60,996 nt of DNA from Saccostrea cucullata (taxonomy: Eukaryota). Location: contig NW_026924749.1 in NCBI RefSeq assembly GCF_032062105.1, positions 186,001 to 246,996 of the forward strand, given 5' to 3'. Positions 32,798 through 60,996 of this stretch are shown piece after piece (the first letter of the stretch is position 1; each line of letters opens with the position of its first letter). The notes under the pieces are model-generated. The model was not told the origin of the DNA and did no database searches. It worked only from the letters and a program-made list of their open reading frames with translations. Both the position numbers and the translations under genes were made by a program.

Positions 32798-34987
32798 TCA
32801 TTCTAATTCTCCTAATGCATGTAGTTCTGTAAAGGAAATAGATGTACGAACTTCGGGTGGGGGCAAAGTTTCGCTGATTTTTATTTTCACGTTGTATTTT
32901 CTACTACATACATTTAAAACTCTTTTAAACCTTCTCAGGGCTCTCACATATGGAAATCGCCACTTTTCATCTGTAATTTTTCCATCAAACAAAACAACAA
33001 GCAAGTTTTCAACCTGATTTTCGGAAAGCAGTTTCCATGCCTGATTCATTCTAAACGTTAGATCATCAAAGTTGTCATTTTGAAGAGGTTTAGAAATGAT
33101 AATAATTATGTTTCTGGATGACTTTATTTCTTTGTCTAAATGAATATGGCGAATAGTACCTACATCTTCGTCAACGGGGGGATAGAAACATTTGTACCCC
33201 TCCTTTTTGAGATATAGGAAAATGTCAATTGCAAATTTATTGACGTCCACATTTGAGTCATCCGACAAAATAAAAATATCATACTTGTACGTTTTCTTCC
33301 TATGATCCACAAGACGATTCTTTAGAATTACAAAATCATATCTAAAGTAGATAGCAACTGCCGCAGTCACCAAGACGACAGCAGGTATAAGGAAGAGATT
33401 AAAAATAATTTGGTCAAATTCATCTTCATAACAATCCGAAAAAGCTTCTTCTGCTGCTTGTCGTACTCCATTCGCATTGGTGCAAAACAAAGGATTTGAA
33501 GATTTATTTTGCACAGATGATCTCCAACTGGCGATCCACTCATCCTTGCATTCGCATGATACACTGTTTTTGCCAAACCAGACTTTATCTGGGTCAATGC
33601 TTTTGAATAGTACTGGAAGTTCTATGAGTTTATGATCCAGCAAAAGAAGGGATTTGAGACGACTCGAGGTCTTATTGAACTTCTCCAGAAATTTATCTTC
33701 GATTGTTTGAACCTCATTTTTAGACAAGTCGAAAAGAGTAATATTTGATAAATATGAATGATTATTGAGAGTCTTTGGAGAAGTGAGCTTGGTTATTTTA
33801 TTATTGCTGCAATTCAATTCGATATCATAATTGGTCTGAGGAACTATGTCTGGAATTTTTGTTAAATTCGCATTGGAACAGTCTACTAACATTCGCATTT
33901 GACTTGGTTGTTCAATACACGTGCATTTCTCGGGACAAAAATTTGTTTTATGACATATAAATTGATCAAACACTGAGATGTTATTGAATGTTTTGAGTAC
34001 ATCGATACCTTTCATATTTTCTGGAGAAAGGCATATATACTGTGTTTTATTTGGAATGGAATAAAATCTCTCGAACATATCCTTTTCTGACAAGAGGAGT
34101 TCTCCTAGGTGGCAATCACAGGGCATGGTTAATTTTGAGAACTCGAAAGCCCCAGTGTGATTATATTGATAGGCTTTTTTGATCTCCGATGGTTCCTTAA
34201 ATATGACAGAAAGGGGATGTTTGTTTGTTTTACATGTTCCAAAAATAATATCCCCACCTCCATAACTCTCTTGGAGAGATATTTTGAATTCAGGAACATC
34301 TGTTAATGTAAGGTTTGATTCATCGAATGAAATGTTGCAGAAAACACTTCTCTTCGGGTAAATATTGGAGATGTGTAAATTATCAAAGTGGTTGTGCGAT
34401 AAATCTATCACAAAGATCTCCGTATTTTGTAGTTCAAATATGTAAGGTTGAAGTGATTTGATGCCAGTATGAGCCATTCTAAGTATCCGTAAGTTTGGCA
34501 TATTCTTGAAAGTAGTGTTTGTAATGAACTGTATGTCATTATAACTTACATCTAAAGAATCCAAGGCCTTTAGGCAATTAATTCCTTCAATGTTTGAAAG
34601 TCTGTTTCTTTGAAAGTCCACTGTCACCAGAATATCACTAAAACTACAAATATTATTTGGCAATTGCGTCATCCTTCCGCCCTGATGAAGTATCCATTTG
34701 AATCCAGTTAACGTTTCGTTTGTAACAATTTTACAATGGCCAGTGGGGTTCAGGTATTCCATATATAATGGTTTATATGATATATTCGAAAAAATCTCCC
34801 AAATTGGTTTGCTTTTACAAGCACAACACCTATTTTTAATTTCTTCCTTGGTACATGAATTTGGACACATAATGTTCTGTTTATGTGGACCAACATCTGA
34901 TGTCCAATTATGAAATTCCGTCTGAACAATGCCAGTTTGAATACAGCTACATGTAAATAAAACGAAAATAATTAAATAGTACCCCAT
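32798..34987 (-). CDS. Toll-like receptor (multiple-cysteine-cluster type), single exon, 729 aa, divergent TIR
   Basis: Signal peptide; LRRs (LDSLDVSYNDI, LRILRMAHTGI); internal LRRCT (PCDCHL..YICLSP) and LRRNT (CPEKCTC..VDCS); second LRR block; LRRCT (NSVSCECKDEW); TM IIFNLFLIPAVVLVTAAVAIYF; TIR starting YKYDIFI. Confidence 0.93.
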   Translation of the reverse strand: MGYYLIIFVLFTCSCIQTGIVQTEFHNWTSDVGPHKQNIMCPNSCTKEEIKNRCCACKSKPIWEIFSNISYKPLYMEYLNPTGHCKIVTNETLTGFKWILHQGGRMTQLPNNICSFSDILVTVDFQRNRLSNIEGINCLKALDSLDVSYNDIQFITNTTFKNMPNLRILRMAHTGIKSLQPYIFELQNTEIFVIDLSHNHFDNLHISNIYPKRSVFCNISFDESNLTLTDVPEFKISLQESYGGGDIIFGTCKTNKHPLSVIFKEPSEIKKAYQYNHTGAFEFSKLTMPCDCHLGELLLSEKDMFERFYSIPNKTQYICLSPENMKGIDVLKTFNNISVFDQFICHKTNFCPEKCTCIEQPSQMRMLVDCSNANLTKIPDIVPQTNYDIELNCSNNKITKLTSPKTLNNHSYLSNITLFDLSKNEVQTIEDKFLEKFNKTSSRLKSLLLLDHKLIELPVLFKSIDPDKVWFGKNSVSCECKDEWIASWRSSVQNKSSNPLFCTNANGVRQAAEEAFSDCYEDEFDQIIFNLFLIPAVVLVTAAVAIYFRYDFVILKNRLVDHRKKTYKYDIFILSDDSNVDVNKFAIDIFLYLKKEGYKCFYPPVDEDVGTIRHIHLDKEIKSSRNIIIIISKPLQNDNFDDLTFRMNQAWKLLSENQVENLLVVLFDGKITDEKWRFPYVRALRRFKRVLNVCSRKYNVKIKISETLPPPEVRTSISFTELHALGELE

Positions 34988-35945
34988 TTTCTTCTTATTT
35001 TTGATAAATCTCGTATTTTAAAGAATTAATAATGTTGTGGCTTGGTAGAGAGAAACGCCAATTTGATGATTGTTTTCTAAAGACACATTATATATACTAA
35101 ATTCATCAAAACGTCGTCACGTGATCTTTTTTTTGTCAGAAAGAATGACAATATCTGTGTTTATTAAATTAATTATCAGCTTATGTCGTGTTTTAACAAA
35201 AGATAATGGCTACTTTAAATGACCGATATATATCAGTTCTACTCTTGAACTGGGCTAAAAATCTAATATTACTAGCAAGGTAAAACCAAAGCAGTGGTTT
35301 TCCCCCTCTTTGATAATAATTATTTTTAGACTGTAAGCCATCAAACCCTTTTCATTTGTTGCATAAAAGGAGAAGAAATCTTTAACTTACACAAACACTC
35401 ATGGACTGGTAATTAAGATTGTAAAAAAAAATGTTAATTGCATATGGCTTCTTCAAGTAAAATCTTATCTGAATAATTACTCATGAGATAATGAAATAAA
35501 GATATGAGGTAAAATCTCAGTTTTGTTCATGATATAAGTATTTTTGATACCAAAATCATTTTCTTATTGACATGAAAGACAAAGAATCTTTTTAAGTTGC
35601 GAAAATATTCAAAATGCTTTGAGTGTGTGGAGCAAAATAATTAAAATGTAACGATCAATCAAACAACATTTAACGCAGAGCACATGTGTTCAGTTATACT
35701 TTCATCTATAAATCCAGGAGCAAGAAATGTATGTACACATATACATATATTTTTTAAAAAATAAAAACCAAGTAACCTTTAAACAGAAAAGAAGTTAGAA
35801 AACACACAATAATTTTAAAATTACATGACGAAAAATAAGAAGATCGTAAAATTATTAGGCTGTATGTTTGATCTTATCTACAAAAGCTGTTTTTGAAAAT
35901 TGATTCCAATGCAAACATGGGTACAAAAATAGATAAACCTTGTTA

Positions 35946-52557: not shown

Positions 52558-52825
52558 TTATGTAACCCTAGTGATCAGGCTAGACTACCGCAATAGTTGA
52601 AATATAACAAACAATGTATACTGAGTGAGAATTGTCATTTATTAAATGACAATAAGTATATAACACATATAAAGTTAAGGGGAGATCACCGGGATATTTC
52701 CTGAGTAAAAAGAACAATAAATTTGGCAACGGTATCTCCCCTGTTGCAAACAAACATTACTTTGGCAAAAATATTTTGACAAATAAAAAGTATATAAACC
52801 ACAAAGTTGTCAAAACAAAAAGCTG
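52558..52825 (-). repeat. Split direct repeat B2 (268 bp)
   Basis: Matches 53175-53442 (offset 617) with 2 mismatches seen. Confidence 0.95.
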
Positions 52826-52954
52826 ACATGACAAAAGTTGCAACGATGGCAATTAAGATGGCACAAGGTATATATTATGAAAAAGAAAAAATACAAAACA
52901 TAATTTTGAGACTACAATATTTTATCATGGAGTATGAAGGGGGACGGAGGGTGG

Positions 52955-53176
52955 GTAAATTTCTAAAAACAAATTTGTGAATTTCTTGGCACTTCTAAAT
53001 CAGTGAAAAGACGCTATCTTGTGTCACGTGATTTGCATAAGCGTTACGATTGGATAATTACAACTTTTTACTAAAGGAGACAGCTAATAACACAATAAGA
53101 CTCAAACAAACATGAAAATTGAACTACATTACATCATAGATTACATAAAGGCTATTATTTACAATAATGCTGTATT
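52955..53176 (-). repeat. Split direct repeat A2 (222 bp)
   Basis: Matches 59367-59588 (offset 6412) with 4 mismatches seen. Confidence 0.95.
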
Positions 53177-53442
53177 ATGTAACCCTAGTGATCTGGCTAG
53201 ACTACCGCAATAGTTGAAATATAACAAACAATGTATACTGAGTGAGAATTGTCATTTATTAAATGACAATAAGTATATAACACATATAAAGTTAAGGGGA
53301 GATCACCGGGATATTTCCTGAGTACAAAGAACAATAAATTTGGCAACGGTATCTCCCCTGTTGCAAACAAACATTACTTTGGCAAAAATATTTTGACAAA
53401 TAAAAAGTATATAAACCACAAAGTTGTCAAAACAAAAAGCTG
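53175..53442 (-). repeat. Split direct repeat B1
   Basis: Copy of 52558-52825; abuts A2, sharing TT. Confidence 0.95.
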
Positions 53443-53519
53443 CCACCAAAAGCAAACTGCTATGAAAAGCTGTTTGCAAAAAACACAAGGCCAAAACAGG
53501 TGGACTAGCCAGATCAACA

Positions 53520-53937: not shown

Positions 53938-54098
53938 TACCCAGCAGTTTACTTCTGTCCTGAGCAAGCTTTGTATGTAAAAATTTTAAAAGTATGCACT
54001 GACACAGCAGTTTACTTCTGCCCTGTGTATTTAGGCGTGAGGCAAAATTAGAAAGACTGATTAGGAAAATTACATAGCAGTTTACTTCTGACCTATGT
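53938..54098 (-). repeat. Three dispersed bulged-hairpin repeats downstream of YR
   Basis: Invariant core CAGAAGTAAACTGCT (- strand) within 53938-53966, 54002-54028, 54072-54098, with differing but complementary outer stems. Confidence 0.85.
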
Positions 54099-54176: not shown

Positions 54177-55155
54177 TTAAATAACGAAGCTCTGTAAACG
54201 GATATATCTCCGTACAGCATCTGAATTCCACCTGCCCATTTTCTGTATGCAATTCTCAGAAAAACCTTGCTGGGCTGCATGAGTTGCAGCTCCTATGCGA
54301 AAGCTATGACCTTTATATAGGGCAGGGTTTAAACCAATGAACAAAACTGTGTTGTGTAAATTTTTTGAAACAAATGCATAAGGAACTGGGTCACCTCCCA
54401 TAAATTGGAAGAGGGGACCAGACTGGTGATTAAAGGCTTGAAGATAGAGATATAATGCCGAAACCAGGGCACATGTCACTGTTGTCCAATGCTCTCAGGT
54501 GAATCTGGAAAAGGTCTTTTTTCTTATTTGTTTTGAAATTTTTCAGTAAAAGGACAACTGCAGAGGGGGAGTTGTTTGAAAATTCAAAAGAAACCTCTTC
54601 TCGTTGAATGACCGTGTTTAACGAACCTTTTGTTTTTACTACAAGTTCACCCAAGCGTAAAAAGGCATTAAATGCCAACAGAAAAATAGCCTTTAACATG
54701 ATTCTATAGTGTAGATTTTGCACAGATTTTTGTAAACCGCAAACTAAGTTATGTAGAATGGGGCCCGTTATTGGTAACCTGGTGTCTTTGTTAGGAGCCG
54801 AACGGTGACATCCCTGCATTATTTTCCGGACCAAAAATGCATCTGATGGATCTGAGAGACCAAGAATTTTATGTAGATAGCTTATGGCTGATATATGAGA
54901 TGATATGCTACTAGGGGAATAACCTATGGTAAAGAGGTGAGCAATGAAGTTCGCTGTCACTGAAGAGGAAATTGGTAGCGAGGTCACAGTGGGGTTGAAC
55001 TGTAGCAACAAATCCCAGCTTCTTTTGTAGGCAGACTTGGTGGTGTTGGACAAGGCTGCTGACAGAAGGTGGTGTGCTTGCTGACTCAAATTGCCAATGA
55101 CTTCAGTGGTATTTGGGTCTGTTGTTGGTTTAGATGAGGCATGGAATTGAATGCA
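54177..55155 (-). pseudogene. Tyrosine recombinase (YR) of the Ngaro element, broken by a 1-bp insertion
   Basis: AFLRLGE, KNFKT, GHSFRIGAAT, GRWNSDAVRRYIR (R-K-H-R-W-Y residues present). Frames 55089-54430 and 54479-54177 join as CPVSALYLYL if one base at about 54464 is removed. Confidence 0.92.
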
Positions 55156-56837
55156 GCCTGAAAATTAAAACGAGATAAGTGATCAGCAGCTATGTTGTGC
55201 TTCCCTGGGATGTGTTTCGCTCTGAAATGCACATTGTATCTTAGGGTTGACAATACCAGACGACGTATCAACCTCATGATGACCTTCTCTTTTGACGTTT
55301 GTTTATTGATAATTTGTACAACTGCTAAATTATCTGACATAAAGAGAACTTTTTTGTTTCTAAACTTATCTCCCCAAATCTCTATTGCTATTACAATTGG
55401 AAATAATTCTTTAATGGCTATTTGATATTCTGCCATGTCATCTTTCCAACGTGATGCAAACCATTCAGAACCCAAGATGGCTGCAAACCCTATTGATCCC
55501 GCCGCATCAGTAAAGAGAGTAAGGTGATCAGACGATAACCATTTTTGGGGCAGAAAAACAGATTTCCCATTGAATGTTTCGAGAAAGGTAAGCCAAGTGT
55601 TTATGTCTTCTTTTGTCTCTTCTGTGAGTTCAATCAACTCGTGAGGCTTTGAAACCCCACAGGTTAGGTCAATTAAACGTCTAAGGAAAGCCCTACCTGG
55701 GATAACAATCGAGCATGCAAAATTGAGCAATCCTATTAAAGACTGTAGATCACGTAATGTGCTACGCGTTTTGTTTTTCATTTCTCCAAGGTTTTTTCTT
55801 ATTTTTTCTACTTTCACAGGAGGTAGACGTGCCTCCATTTTGACCGAGTCAACTTCTATGCCATAGATAGTGATTTTGGTAGTGGGGGGTTGAGTTTTTG
55901 ACATTTTAATGGGTACCCCAATTTTTTTGCAAAGGAAAAGAAAATTTGTGAGATCATTCTTGCAATTGTCCGAGCCAGCTGGCCCAATGAAGAAGAAATC
56001 ATCAAGGATATGTGACATACCTCCAGCTTGATATCTGAATTGCATTATCCACTGTAATGCAACACTAAGTTGTTCAAAAATTTGACAGGAACTACTAGCC
56101 CCCATAGGCAAACATTTATCAAAGTAAAATTGGCCTTGCCATGAAAAACCCAATAAATGGTAGTCACTGGGATTGACTGGGATAATTCTAAAAGCGTCCT
56201 GAATATCTGTTTTTACCATCAGACAATAAGCTCCATTCTGTTGGACAAGATGTATTACTAGGTCGATGGAGTCATATTGCACAACTGAATTTTCTTTTGG
56301 GATATTTATATTGACTGAATTGTCTCGGGGATAAGATAAGTCATGAATAATTCTGAATTGACCGGGTTCAGATTTAGGAACCACCCCCAAAGGGGATGAT
56401 ATGAAAGGATCAAAAGGAGGGCAAGGAAAGGGGCCTGCAATACGATTAAGTTCTAAGCTTTTGTGGATATGTGCATCTATGATATCACCATGACTTAATG
56501 CTGATGAATGGTTTTTGGACAAACGTGCAGTTGGAGTAGTGCTACAACCCAAAGAGAAACCAAATTTGAAACCTTCTACTAACAGTTGTTTTAGGTTTTT
56601 GTCATAACCCTCTAATTCTTCACTAAGTTTGTTTGGATTTACTGGCGTGGGAAGTGCGTGACTCTGCAGATTGTTGAGACCTACATTTGTGTTTTGGGTG
56701 TTGTCCCCTGCATATTTGACAGATGTGTGTGAAGGGACATGGTGTGGTTTTACATTTGTCACCTTGGTTAAAGGCGAAGCAGAATTTTGTTCTCCCCGCC
56801 TGTTTGGTACGAAAGGGCTGACTGTAAGGGGCAGGTT
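55086..56837 (-). CDS. Pol ORF (reverse transcriptase plus RNase H), uninterrupted, no early AUG
   Basis: SPLGVVPK, FRIIHDLS, KTDIQDAFR, LPMGASSSC, HILDDFF; RNase H LFTDAAG, IKELFPI, SDNLAVV, ADHLSR. Frame is open from 56837 (after TAA 56840-56838) and overlaps the gag 3' end in the +1 frame. Confidence 0.95.
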   Translation of the reverse strand, partial: NLPLTVSPFVPNRRGEQNSASPLTKVTNVKPHHVPSHTSVKYAGDNTQNTNVGLNNLQSHALPTPVNPNKLSEELEGYDKNLKQLLVEGFKFGFSLGCSTTPTARLSKNHSSALSHGDIIDAHIHKSLELNRIAGPFPCPPFDPFISSPLGVVPKSEPGQFRIIHDLSYPRDNSVNINIPKENSVVQYDSIDLVIHLVQQNGAYCLMVKTDIQDAFRIIPVNPSDYHLLGFSWQGQFYFDKCLPMGASSSCQIFEQLSVALQWIMQFRYQAGGMSHILDDFFFIGPAGSDNCKNDLTNFLFLCKKIGVPIKMSKTQPPTTKITIYGIEVDSVKMEARLPPVKVEKIRKNLGEMKNKTRSTLRDLQSLIGLLNFACSIVIPGRAFLRRLIDLTCGVSKPHELIELTEETKEDINTWLTFLETFNGKSVFLPQKWLSSDHLTLFTDAAGSIGFAAILGSEWFASRWKDDMAEYQIAIKELFPIVIAIEIWGDKFRNKKVLFMSDNLAVVQIINKQTSKEKVIMRLIRRLVLSTLRYNVHFRAKHIPGKHNIAADHLSRFNFQAAFNSMPHLNQQQTQIPLKSLAI

Positions 56838-57819
56838 TTAACGTAATGCATTTTCCCCTCAATTCTTCGACCGGTTTTTGCCAGGGAAGTTCAGCTGTTT
56901 CTTTTAGTTTTCTGAAGGATTCATCATAAGCCCTCCAGGCTGAATCGCCATGTAGTTTGTGAAGTTCCCTAACAAAACTCATGTACTTTAATAGGTGAGG
57001 GGCCTCTGATGGGTCTTTTTCAATTTTAATGCAAATAAAGACCAAAAAGGCATCAGTCCACTGATTAATTGATAAGGGATTTTTTGTTTTTGGATTCTGT
57101 TGCAAGTTGATCACACCTGGTGATATTAACAAAGTAAGAGGGTTTTCCTCATGGTGCGGCAAAAGACACCGTAAATCAATGAATTCATTTGACCAAACTT
57201 TGGATTTTACCTTAGCTGATATGGCCGCACCAAGAGGAATCCCGTCAGTTACAGAAATGAAAGATTTATCTTTGTTTAAGCTAGATGAAACTGTGCCCAC
57301 TGGCTCACCTTCATTTGTCCCAAAAATTTGAGAAACCAATGATGACACTGTCACATCTGTGGATGAGTTGTTTGCATATGTAGATGTGCTCTGACTTGTT
57401 GTGGCAGGCATTTGTTGTGTGGCATTGCTTGAGGTAGATGTGCTCAGACTTGTTATGGCAGGCATTTGTTGTGTGGTATTGCTTGAGGCATTTTGAATTA
57501 CTGCTGGCGCTGGCTCTTGTACCGGGGCAGTTGGCAATTGTGCAGCTGTCAGAAGCGTTGGTTGAGTTAGTACTGTCTCATTACTGACATTATTTGTTAC
57601 TGGTGGCACTGAAATTGTGGCACTAGCAGATGAACTGGTTGCTCTTTGTTGTTTCAGAATTTCTTCCGCCAGTTTCTGATAGTCAATTTCTTGCACGGAA
57701 ACTGTCTTCTGTCTTTTCCGGGTGACTGTGTTGCTAGGCGTTGCTGCCTGTGGATCCCCTTGGGCTGCTGCTGCCTGTGGATCCCCTTGGGCTGCTGCTG
57801 CCTTTCTCCGTTTAGGCAT
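56623..57819 (-). CDS. Gag-like protein of the Ngaro element, 398 aa
   Basis: Low-complexity N-half with internal duplications, KVWSNEFIDLRCLL, INQWTDAF, AWRAYDESFR, and C-terminal Cys/His finger CFAFNQGDKCKTTPCPFTHICQICRGQHPKHKC. Confidence 0.9.
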   Translation of the reverse strand: MPKRRKAAAAQGDPQAAAAQGDPQAATPSNTVTRKRQKTVSVQEIDYQKLAEEILKQQRATSSSASATISVPPVTNNVSNETVLTQPTLLTAAQLPTAPVQEPAPAVIQNASSNTTQQMPAITSLSTSTSSNATQQMPATTSQSTSTYANNSSTDVTVSSLVSQIFGTNEGEPVGTVSSSLNKDKSFISVTDGIPLGAAISAKVKSKVWSNEFIDLRCLLPHHEENPLTLLISPGVINLQQNPKTKNPLSINQWTDAFLVFICIKIEKDPSEAPHLLKYMSFVRELHKLHGDSAWRAYDESFRKLKETAELPWQKPVEELRGKCITLKPAPYSQPFRTKQAGRTKFCFAFNQGDKCKTTPCPFTHICQICRGQHPKHKCRSQQSAESRTSHASKSKQT

Positions 57820-57885
57820 GATCTACATTCTTATTGCATACAAGGATTCAGGAACCGACACACTATTTTTACAAAAATAGTAATA

Positions 57886-58494
57886 GCACACTACTCTGCG
57901 TGTGTTTGAGTATTATATCTCTAAGGGCACACTACTCTGCGTGTGTACAAGTTTTGTGTCTATATAACTTATAAAGGCACACTACTCTGCGTGTGTCTGT
58001 CTATTATTATTATATAAGGGCACACTTCTCTGTGTGCAACTGAATATTATGTGTATAGGTAAGGAAATATTACTCCGTATGATGTCCAATTGTTATGTCA
58101 ATATAATATTACACTACTTTGCGTGTTTCATTTTCCATGTCACTACAGTAAAAAGAAGCACACTACTCTGTGTGAGAAATCAAGGGCACACTACTCTGCG
58201 TGTGACTGAATCGGGGCACACTACTCTGCGTGTAACTGATCGGGGCACACTACTCTGCGTGTGACTGAATCGGGGCACACTACTCTGCGTGCGTCTAAAT
58301 CAGGGCACATATCTCTGCCTGTGTTTAAATAGGGGCACACTACTCAGCGTGTGACTTACCCAAATGACAAAAACAAAGCACAAAATTTCATGAGCGACTC
58401 TTACCTGACATTATTGTAAAAGAGAATGTACTAAACTATATGTTTGACATATACTTAATATTTTTCTTGAAAATTCACACTACTCTGCGTGTGT
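57886..58494 (-). repeat. Array of about 14 short hairpin-forming repeats with variable spacers between the hydrolase and gag
   Basis: CACACTACTCTGCGTG (+) or variants start at 57887, 57928, 57978, 58021, about 58066 (degenerate), 58110, 58159, 58187, 58217, 58246, 58276, 58306, 58336, 58476. Confidence 0.95.
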
Positions 58495-58570
58495 CTTTGT
58501 GGAATCAATTCATTTCTCACATAACACTCTATCAAAGAAAAGTATGTTTTAAATCATAGCATTACTTGCA

Positions 58571-58604
<34 letters not shown>

Positions 58605-58615
58605 TAGTAACATAC

Positions 58616-59200
58616 TCATCTTGAATGTTGCAGTACTGCAATTCTAATACTATGCATATATTTCTTCATATGCCTGGAGTCACCCTCAATATGAACTCCA
58701 TCACGTCCCAGGTAGGACAGGTCCGCCCAAAATCCCCTGTGTGGCCAAAAATACACACCGTCTACTTTCCCTATTTCCTCTTTCAAAAGATTGTTCACTT
58801 TTACCACATCCTCGTTAAACTTGACACGAGAAGCCCATGGCTGACGGCGTAATAACTGTCCAACAATTACAGTTTTTATTCCAACACCATCGCGCAAGTA
58901 TTGTGCATACGAAATTAAGTCCGTACATACTTTCCGAGGATTGTTTAGACTCAAGTCATTACTGCCCATCTGTATAAAACAAATATCGGGGGGTGCGTCA
59001 AACCGTAGAAATTCTGCACAGTGGGCTAGACGTTTGAATGTGAAACCACCGCGTGATCTGAAATCCACTTTGAAGGAGTCCATATCCAAATTTAAATTAG
59101 TCCTAAGATCACTTGCATCTATAAATTCTTTCAAACGGCGGATATAAGAATGTCCTAAGATGCACACAGTTCGAATGTTTACTTCGGGTTCGGCCGCCAT
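58616..59200 (-). CDS. SGNH/GDSL-type hydrolase (esterase) encoded by the Ngaro element, 194 aa from the AUG
   Basis: Block I ILGHSY, block II RGG, block III QMGSNDL, block V DGVH; first AUG at 59200 (MAAEPEV). Confidence 0.9.
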   Translation of the reverse strand: MAAEPEVNIRTVCILGHSYIRRLKEFIDASDLRTNLNLDMDSFKVDFRSRGGFTFKRLAHCAEFLRFDAPPDICFIQMGSNDLSLNNPRKVCTDLISYAQYLRDGVGIKTVIVGQLLRRQPWASRVKFNEDVVKVNNLLKEEIGKVDGVYFWPHRGFWADLSYLGRDGVHIEGDSRHMKKYMHSIRIAVLQHSR

Positions 59201-59366
59201 TGCGTAACCCTGTTTTGCTGGACGGAGCCTGTCTATCCCTGGGACAAAAACACTCAAAAATCCACAAATCACTTACTTTACACTGATGTAATCTTGTTTT
59301 GTAGTCTTCGGATTGGTAAAACAATGCAATAAATTCGTAAAAAACGATAAAAACACTCCTGAAGAC

Positions 59367-59588
59367 GTAAATTTCTAAAAACAAATTTGTGAATTTCTTG
59401 GCACTTCTAAATCAGTGAAAAGACGCTATCTTGTGTCACGTGATTTGAATAAGCGTTACGATTGGATAATTACAACTTTTTCCTAAAGGAGACAGCTAAT
59501 GACACAATAAGACTCAAACAAACATGAAAGTTGAACTACATTACATCATAGATTACATAAAGGCTATTATTTACAATAATGCTGTATT
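59367..59588 (-). repeat. Split direct repeat A1 (5' end of element)
   Basis: Copy of 52955-53176. Confidence 0.95.
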
Positions 59589-60996
59589 TTGTTTTATTCA
59601 AAATTTACCTTTTGATACTTCTTAACTTAGAGCTAACCTTTTCACAAAGAGTAATATTTAAGTGCAGTGAATGGTGGACCCGGAATATCTTTTTAATGAT
59701 TGCTTTATTTTTTGTTCCTTTTTTAGATAATTTTCAGAATTTACATTAAAAAAAAAAGAAATAAAACTTATTTACATTTGTATAGTTTATTGTGTTATGA
59801 ATCTACGGTTATTTTGACTGCACTCATATTGGGAAATATGGATTGTTGAGCTTCCTCCATACAATGACAAAGATGTCCTTAGAAAATTTTCTCTGTATGC
59901 AAGACACAGGATCATTATTCGTCTTACCATTTAAAGAGATTTAAAGTTTTTTTTTCGACAAGACAGCGTTCGTAGTAAATTTAGAAAGAAAAAACCCACG
60001 CAGTATAAAATAAAATTCGCTAATTTTACTGTTACATGTATACATGTACATGTATATTTTTACAATTTTGATGCGATTTAAATATTCTTCAATTGTTTTA
60101 CAAAGAATGTTAAAAAATATAAACATTTATTCTTACCGAAAACTATTAAATGTCACACATTATAGCTAACAATATCATTGTGTTTTGTAGATTAAATTTT
60201 GTTGATATTCCATATATCGGTAATACACGTTTTTACGACTTGTTCCTGTAAATTTGTACATGTTACAAATATTATTGAAATAATTTTCTCGTGTACATGT
60301 TTTTCTACAAATCGGCTACAGAGTGTTGGATTTAAATGTTTTAAGTTTTCTTTTGATTATATACATGTACATAAGAAAGAAAGAAATCTAAAGAGTTAGA
60401 ATATAACATTACATTTGTAATCAAAAGAATTTTCGAAGTTGAGGTTATTGAAAAACCCTGTAACATCATTTATCTCTTCGAAATCAGTTCTAGGCAATTA
60501 AACCTCTTTCACTAGACCTGCGTGCCAGTGAAGGTCTAAATTCGAAAACCCTAGAAGAGGTATACGAGTCAAAATTTCTTGATCGAGATGTAAAACAACA
60601 TTAATTTTCGAAAAAGTAAAAAAAAAAACTACTGATTTTTCATATTTTCTAAAAACTTCTTTGAAGTTTTGAGAATCCATGTATGATTTAGACTTTTATA
60701 GCACAGCGCGTCTGGATTTTTGGCCTTTACAGTTGTTAATCATTTTTTGATTTGTAAAAATCAAAGGTTTTGCAGAGCATTTGTTGGACCAAGCAAGACA
60801 CCATTTCGTTGACTGGAATATTAAAAAGTTATTTAAGGCAGAAACGAAGGTTGTATCAAAGAAATTAATGATTATCATGTAAAAGGTGAACTGTGAATAT
60901 ATACGTATCGTATTTGAGATGCAGATGCAGATTCAAAACCCTGTTTCTTTGAAATACAGTTGTTTTAATTAGTTTTAACATCAAATATGATATAAT

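Follow-up and report, generated by a model that had tools for sequence, protein, structure and literature searches.

A Ngaro-type tyrosine recombinase (YR) retrotransposon of the oyster Saccostrea cucullata very probably obtains most of its recombinase from a spliced RNA, in which a donor within Gag is joined with an acceptor in the terminal part of RNase H, 2151 nt are taken out, and the N-terminal Gag exon is brought into frame with the YR. The element lies in a stretch of 60,996 nt (assembly GCF_032062105.1, contig NW_026924749.1, nt 186,001–246,996, forward strand), referred to here as the window, and coordinates are those of the window. The expression of start-less recombinases in the order DIRS has so far been a matter of guesswork, with frameshifting as the proposal; RNA data, intron-less genomic copies and codon conservation favour splicing.

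Structure and Classification of the Element

Repeat, ORF and Pfam analyses show a complete YR retrotransposon on the minus strand, from nt 59592 to nt 52558. Its split direct repeats, all on this strand, have the order A1...B1-A2-B2 typical of Ngaro elements. The A repeats (226 nt, 98% identity) lie at the 5′ end (A1, nt 59367–59592) and at nt 52955–53180 (A2), and the B repeats (271 nt, 99% identity) at nt 53175–53445 (B1) and at the 3′ end (B2, nt 52558–52828). Gag, RT/RNase H and YR follow in that order on the same strand, and a Pfam search for a methyltransferase domain gave no match at E ≤ 0.1. The excerpts of PMC9210276, PMC4157794 and PMC3783388 that define the Ngaro layout (order DIRS) describe the same overlapping order of Gag, RT/RNase H and YR, A1-B1-A2-B2 repeats and the lack of a methyltransferase; splicing goes unmentioned in them, whereas the oyster element is spliced. 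Classified by layout (repeats, ORF order and domain content) rather than by comparison with reference Ngaro elements, the locus is a Ngaro-type retrotransposon. PAT-like and DIRS1-like identities were rejected, as both would call for a methyltransferase domain and DIRS1 also for inverted terminal repeats and an ICR.

The Gag ORF (nt 56623–57819, minus strand, 398 aa) is open and can be aligned to the Gag proteins of 21 family representatives; it has no Pfam match, and was assigned from its position, its conservation and a Cys/His motif near the C-terminus. The RT/RNase H ORF (nt 55086–56837, minus strand, 583 aa from stop to stop; Pfam RVT_1 above cut-off) is shifted by +1 against the Gag frame, has its first Met about 206 codons in, and stops 27 codons past the LSR motif of RNase H. 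The YR exon (nt 54177–55157, minus strand) matches Phage_int_SAM_1 and Phage_integrase in two frames, the window copy being broken by a one-base frameshift near nt 54,460. Core-binding and catalytic domains and the R...HxxR...Y residues are all present in the alignment, split by this frameshift in the window copy. Two siblings, with 64 and 74 substitutions across 3698 nt, have the YR as a single open frame of 328 aa.

An SGNH/GDSL hydrolase ORF lies 5′ of Gag (nt 58616–59200, minus strand; Pfam Lipase_GDSL_2, E 6e-5, under the curated cut-off), and such an ORF occupies this position in most families. Excerpts on the Xenopus element DIRS-53_XT likewise describe an extra SGNH hydrolase ORF, but in the amphibian Ngaro elements the hydrolase is described after the YR, and in the oyster element it is upstream of Gag. 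Between hydrolase and Gag is an array of short-motif repeats (nt 57859–58498; repeat families D3, D5 and D6) with a unit of about 21 nt. Tandem repeats are found at this place in other families too, and the array is a possible promoter or splicing-control region.

Splice Sites and Reading Frame

The initial annotation had predicted, from the DNA alone, a donor after nt 57309 and an acceptor before nt 55157, an intron of 2151 nt with phase 1 at both ends, and an open YR frame past the joint. All of these were found again. The intron (nt 55158–57308, minus strand) has GT..AG ends, is removed in RNA (joint in runs X21, X23 and X1), and carries away almost the whole of RT/RNase H together with the Gag core and the zinc finger. 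The exon that remains of Gag (nt 57309–57819, minus strand) consists of 170 codons plus 1 nt. With a generic splice matrix, not trained on the Saccostrea genome, the donor ranked second of the 435 GTs in the element and first within the coding ORFs, and the acceptor tied for first of 411 AGs. The predicted splice exceeds chance because the joint is present in RNA.

The YR had been described as lacking an AUG for about 90 codons, a figure that is correct only when counted from the RT stop. Counted through the stop-to-stop frame, the first AUG comes at codon 116, which lies 113 codons downstream of the acceptor. It is beyond the SAM-like domain (YR residues 35–101), so the start of the YR must come from outside its own frame. 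Likewise, the proposed fusion length of about 496 aa applies only if a 27-nt duplication unique to the window copy is included; the two siblings would give 487 aa, and the fusion of the window copy itself would end at 412 aa, as in the database model P0001.

A separate short RNA, translated from an AUG inside the YR or from a non-AUG start, would be another way to make the recombinase, and in some families a Met does occur earlier in the YR frame. The position of this Met is not conserved (between −45 and +227 codons when measured from the RT stop, excluding the intron-less copy L049), in the window's family the first YR Met is past the SAM-like domain, and no pile-up of RNA starts near the YR was listed in the mapped runs. 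We regard such a start as a very remote prospect.

RNA Evidence for the Splice

Four of 24 listed runs were mapped on the element, and junction reads, which the prediction called for, were present at exactly the predicted sites. The exact joint occurs in three of the four runs, from two studies, as a skip of 2151 nt with CT..AC on the plus strand. The libraries look unstranded, and the strand was called from the intron ends. Run X21 has six joint reads with six different starts, and X23 has four joint reads with a single start. In X1, which was taken as RNA by guess only, a contig bearing the joint has a depth of 60.3, whereas unspliced sequence reaches 12.6 next to the acceptor and 3 in the bin on the donor side. 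Coverage at the joint was zero in X22. Read depth in X21 is 15–23 over the YR, falls to 0.1–3 over most of the intron and rises again to 22.6 in the Gag exon, so that 3′ bias cannot be the cause of this pattern. Spliced RNA thus exceeds unspliced RNA in both X1 and X21 for the window's family.

The joint reads agree with each of the two siblings at 17 of 18 listed letters, and the expressed copies are siblings, not the window copy with its frameshifted YR. An intron-less genomic copy carried by the sequenced animals could be the source of the reads; no such copy of the window's own family was found in the assembly among the candidates scored (40 of 113 and 101 of 1888).

For the distant family L070, no Gag-YR joint was listed in the four runs from three studies that cover the element (min_share 20; contigs lose rare forms), and an X1 contig passes the acceptor unspliced at a depth of 192. 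Splicing in the L070 clade may be rare, limited to certain tissues, or absent. At position 6100 of L070, three reads show a loose end after an AG, in phase 2 and with foreign letters upstream.

Conservation across Families

Sixty loci were picked by hand from 150 YR matches and, with the window, represent 24 families, which share ancestry, so that the family counts given here are not independent events. The initial annotation had expected splice sites and phase to be kept in siblings, and this was borne out: the acceptor is retained in 24 of 24 families and a phase-matched best donor in 20 of the 21 scored. The acceptor is always at the second or fourth codon past the D..SR motif of RNase H, ends in AG and is in phase 1 of the YR. 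Its codon is CAG in 23 families and AAG in one, against a background of 153 CAG among 373 Gln codons of RT. In the nine families with the residues FQFQ, the first Gln is encoded by CAA and the acceptor Gln by CAG. The motif D..SR was missing in three of the surveyed loci, and one further locus was frameshifted. At seven loci a neighbouring AG outscored the conserved acceptor, yet the RefSeq models of three of these still use the conserved one.

On the donor side, 20 of 21 families have their best site within 200 nt 5′ of the Gag core in phase 1 (compared with 89 of 214 GTs as background), a survey that left out two families without a match to the core pattern, with best donors in phase 0, and one without usable Gag. 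For L069 and L077, in the L070 clade, the best-scoring donors do not have the matching phase. Use of the same donor with an acceptor upstream of RT was considered and rejected, as the Gag/RT overlap of these families holds no acceptor of kept position or phase.

Poulter and Butler (2015), as quoted in an excerpt of PMC13003380, held that YR is probably produced via programmed frameshifting in the overlap. Applied here, the recombinase would be made mainly as a Pol-YR fusion through −1 frameshifting in the RNase H/YR overlap, with the splice as a side route. The YR is indeed in the −1 frame in all 24 representatives, with an overlap of 79–151 nt, and RNA of the L070 family is unspliced. Both intact siblings (L031 and L032) have a canonical −1 heptamer in the overlap, which is absent from the window copy, but theirs is the only one of the 24 families to carry such a slippery site. 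At one locus, L127, RT/RNase H and YR share a frame of 922 aa (nt 4226–6991 of that locus, oriented), whereas the frames are separate in its siblings L128 and L130. Frameshifting at −1 leaves the codon-level conservation of the acceptor and the phase-matched donors unexplained, and in the window's family spliced RNA is in excess in X1 and X21. Frameshifting as the main route is therefore judged improbable.

The splice might also be real but serve as a regulatory or selfish by-product, diverting RNA from Gag and RT or giving rise to non-autonomous copies, while the fusion protein stays idle. Intron-less copies do spread in the genome, most of the Gag exon is of low complexity and disordered, and the fusion protein is deduced from RNA and sequence. 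A by-product needs no match of frame, yet 20 of 21 families retain the phase; the YR frame of most intact copies begins to be open just 7–25 nt 5′ of the acceptor; and the DNA-binding domain would be left without any other start. This reading is rated somewhat lower still than frameshifting, and splicing to produce the recombinase is preferred over both.

Intron-less Genomic Copies

Copies lacking the intron are present in sister families. The locus L049 corresponds to L050 minus a GT..AG piece of 2160 nt; it has one ORF of 470 aa and retains all four repeats. L109 and L110 lack 2250 and 2163 nt, respectively, in both cases exactly GT..AG. Among the 86 loci with a YR, at 84 distinct places, only these three lack both RT and the Gag core, L109 and L110 having been picked because their matches looked fused. 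As judged from their genomic structure, the three copies show that spliced RNA of sister families undergoes reverse transcription and insertion, in keeping with the trans-acting RT that an excerpt of PMC7192593 describes for DIRS-1.

The window's own family has two deleted copies; L115, the one checked at the base level, has non-canonical ends and was rejected as a spliced-out copy. The deletion in L117 was rejected as a lost intron, its ends not being GT..AG. Compared with L071, locus L108 lacks a GT..AG piece of 404 nt running from within RNase H to the same acceptor. This loss would bring a truncated RT/RNase H in frame with the YR and would point to a second donor for the acceptor.

Gene Models and the Predicted Fusion Protein

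Models of the RefSeq type are usually backed by RNA-seq. Ten of the eleven RefSeq models mapped to loci use GT..AG at these sites, including P0001 (LOC134267234, 412 aa) at the window locus; the eleventh (L066) belongs to a copy with a degenerate donor. Models P0035 and P0122 have RNase H sequence ahead of the YR instead. The automatic models (P0001; oyster 'integrase/recombinase xerD homolog') thus join the same two exons, also at the window locus, but under generic names and without describing the join as an expression strategy of a retrotransposon. The RNA-level evidence bears directly on how the YR is expressed, but the join itself is already present in these models. Many bivalve gene models named 'xerD homolog' can be explained as spliced transposon products. 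Database proteins of Saccostrea echinata, Crassostrea virginica, Ostrea edulis, Mizuhopecten and Branchiostoma likewise have a Gag leader and a YR, a comparison made on the proteins alone.

From the alignment and the structure model of a sister-family fusion (P0002), the Gag N-terminal exon has a basic N-terminus and two short conserved helices, the remainder being disordered. The P0002 model as a whole comprises a disordered leader, the two short helices and a confidently predicted Cre-like recombinase, with Cre as the best fold match (E 1e-10); most of its Gag exon is low-complexity sequence. A basic cluster is found within the first 70 residues in 25 of 26 aligned fusion-type proteins, and the basic N-terminus probably acts as a nuclear localisation signal. 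A two-copy self-association model of the Gag N-terminal helix (residues 30–70) received a very low score and was counted neither way.

Candidate Frameshift Site and Predicted First Intron

Every intact copy that was scored has RT in frame +1 relative to Gag, and a candidate +1 ribosomal frameshift site of the YCC_UUU_CG type lies at nt 56809–56817 (minus strand), where the Gag frame reads CCC TTT CGT. Taking the best copy of each family, TTT-C in the Gag frame occurs within the open RT frame in 24 of 24 families, TTT-CG in 21 and YCC TTT CG in 10; the Gag background is 21 TTT-C in 5462 codons. The conservation extends to codon choice, Phe-Arg pairs being written as TTT-CGN in 27 of 34 cases in the overlap versus 5 of 20 elsewhere in Gag. 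By these codon patterns, the TTT-C motif likely gives RT through +1 frameshifting. The YCC_UUU_CG motif is described for influenza PA-X and vertebrate PLEKHM2 in excerpts of bioRxiv 10.1101/2024.08.30.610563 and PMC8310308. The window and 10 of 24 families carry the same motif as those sites, whereas 14 of 24 have only TTT-CG or TTT-C, and its function in the oyster elements is a prediction. The conserved motif supplies a putative +1 frameshift site of RT that can be put to the test.

A first intron spanning the hydrolase ORF is also likely, running from the leader to just 5′ of the Gag AUG (predicted at nt 57823–59276, minus strand, with putative boundaries in the window). All 19 family representatives surveyed have a YAG 0–10 nt 5′ of the Gag AUG (background, 0.30), and locus L126 lacks the equivalent GT..AG piece of 2051 nt in comparison with L078. 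A joint for this intron was not listed among the four mapped runs.

Proposed Expression Scheme and Comparison with Other Systems

In the proposed scheme, unspliced RNA would be translated into Gag and, likely through a +1 frameshift at TTT-C(G), into Gag-RT/RNase H, and would also serve as the genome. The spliced RNA would be translated into the fusion protein. Its Gag exon would provide the start codon, the part of this exon's role that the data show directly, and probably a nuclear localisation signal, while the short conserved helix may tie the recombinase to Gag particles. All four split repeats remain in the spliced RNA, so that it is sometimes copied back as a non-autonomous element, as the sister families show. 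Splicing is in this way a source of non-autonomous copies, and the splice names which recombinase protein to express for biochemistry.

A similar arrangement is known from retroviruses and gypsy elements with spliced env mRNA and from foamy viruses with spliced pol mRNA, in which splicing past gag-pol gives access to the 3′-most gene. N-terminal codons of some env proteins are taken from gag. Compared with retroviral env and foamy pol, the product here is the integrating enzyme, with about 45–170 Gag residues borrowed in the models examined.

As a precedent for retrotransposon splicing, the nearest case is the Ty1/Copia element EVD of Arabidopsis, in which, according to an excerpt of PMC5580714, a conserved splice likewise balances structural against catalytic proteins. 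The spliced RNA of EVD gives Gag only, whereas that of the oyster element drops the Gag core and RT and joins the Gag leader to the integrating enzyme. No report of a Gag-YR splice was found in the literature searched, a scope outside which lie the founding papers (by Goodwin and Poulter in 2004 and by Poulter and Goodwin in 2005), supplements and Repbase entries. The excerpts of PMC7192593, PMC9210276, PMC8547959, PMC6681497, PMC3266345, PMC2632668, PMC9341512, PMC4157794 and PMC3783388 contain no such splice.

A broader version of the scheme, to which we give an even chance, would apply to Ngaro elements across animals: a 5′ intron would switch between hydrolase and Gag, a +1 frameshift of the PA-X type would give Gag-RT, and the splice would give the Gag-leader/recombinase, with the shared N-terminus loading the enzyme into particle and nucleus. 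This would replace the frameshift model for the YR.

Other Features of the Window

Short stretches in the 3′ region of the element (nt 53150–53180 and 54003–54098) match many reads of other transcripts, seen as loose ends in all four runs, which suggests element fragments inside host mRNAs. Elsewhere in the window, a single-exon ORF of 739 aa (nt 32798–35017, minus strand) has, by eye, the look of a Toll-like receptor, with leucine-rich repeats, a membrane segment and a TIR-like end, and a fragment at nt 23804–24193 (minus strand), also judged by eye, resembles a Harbinger-type transposase.
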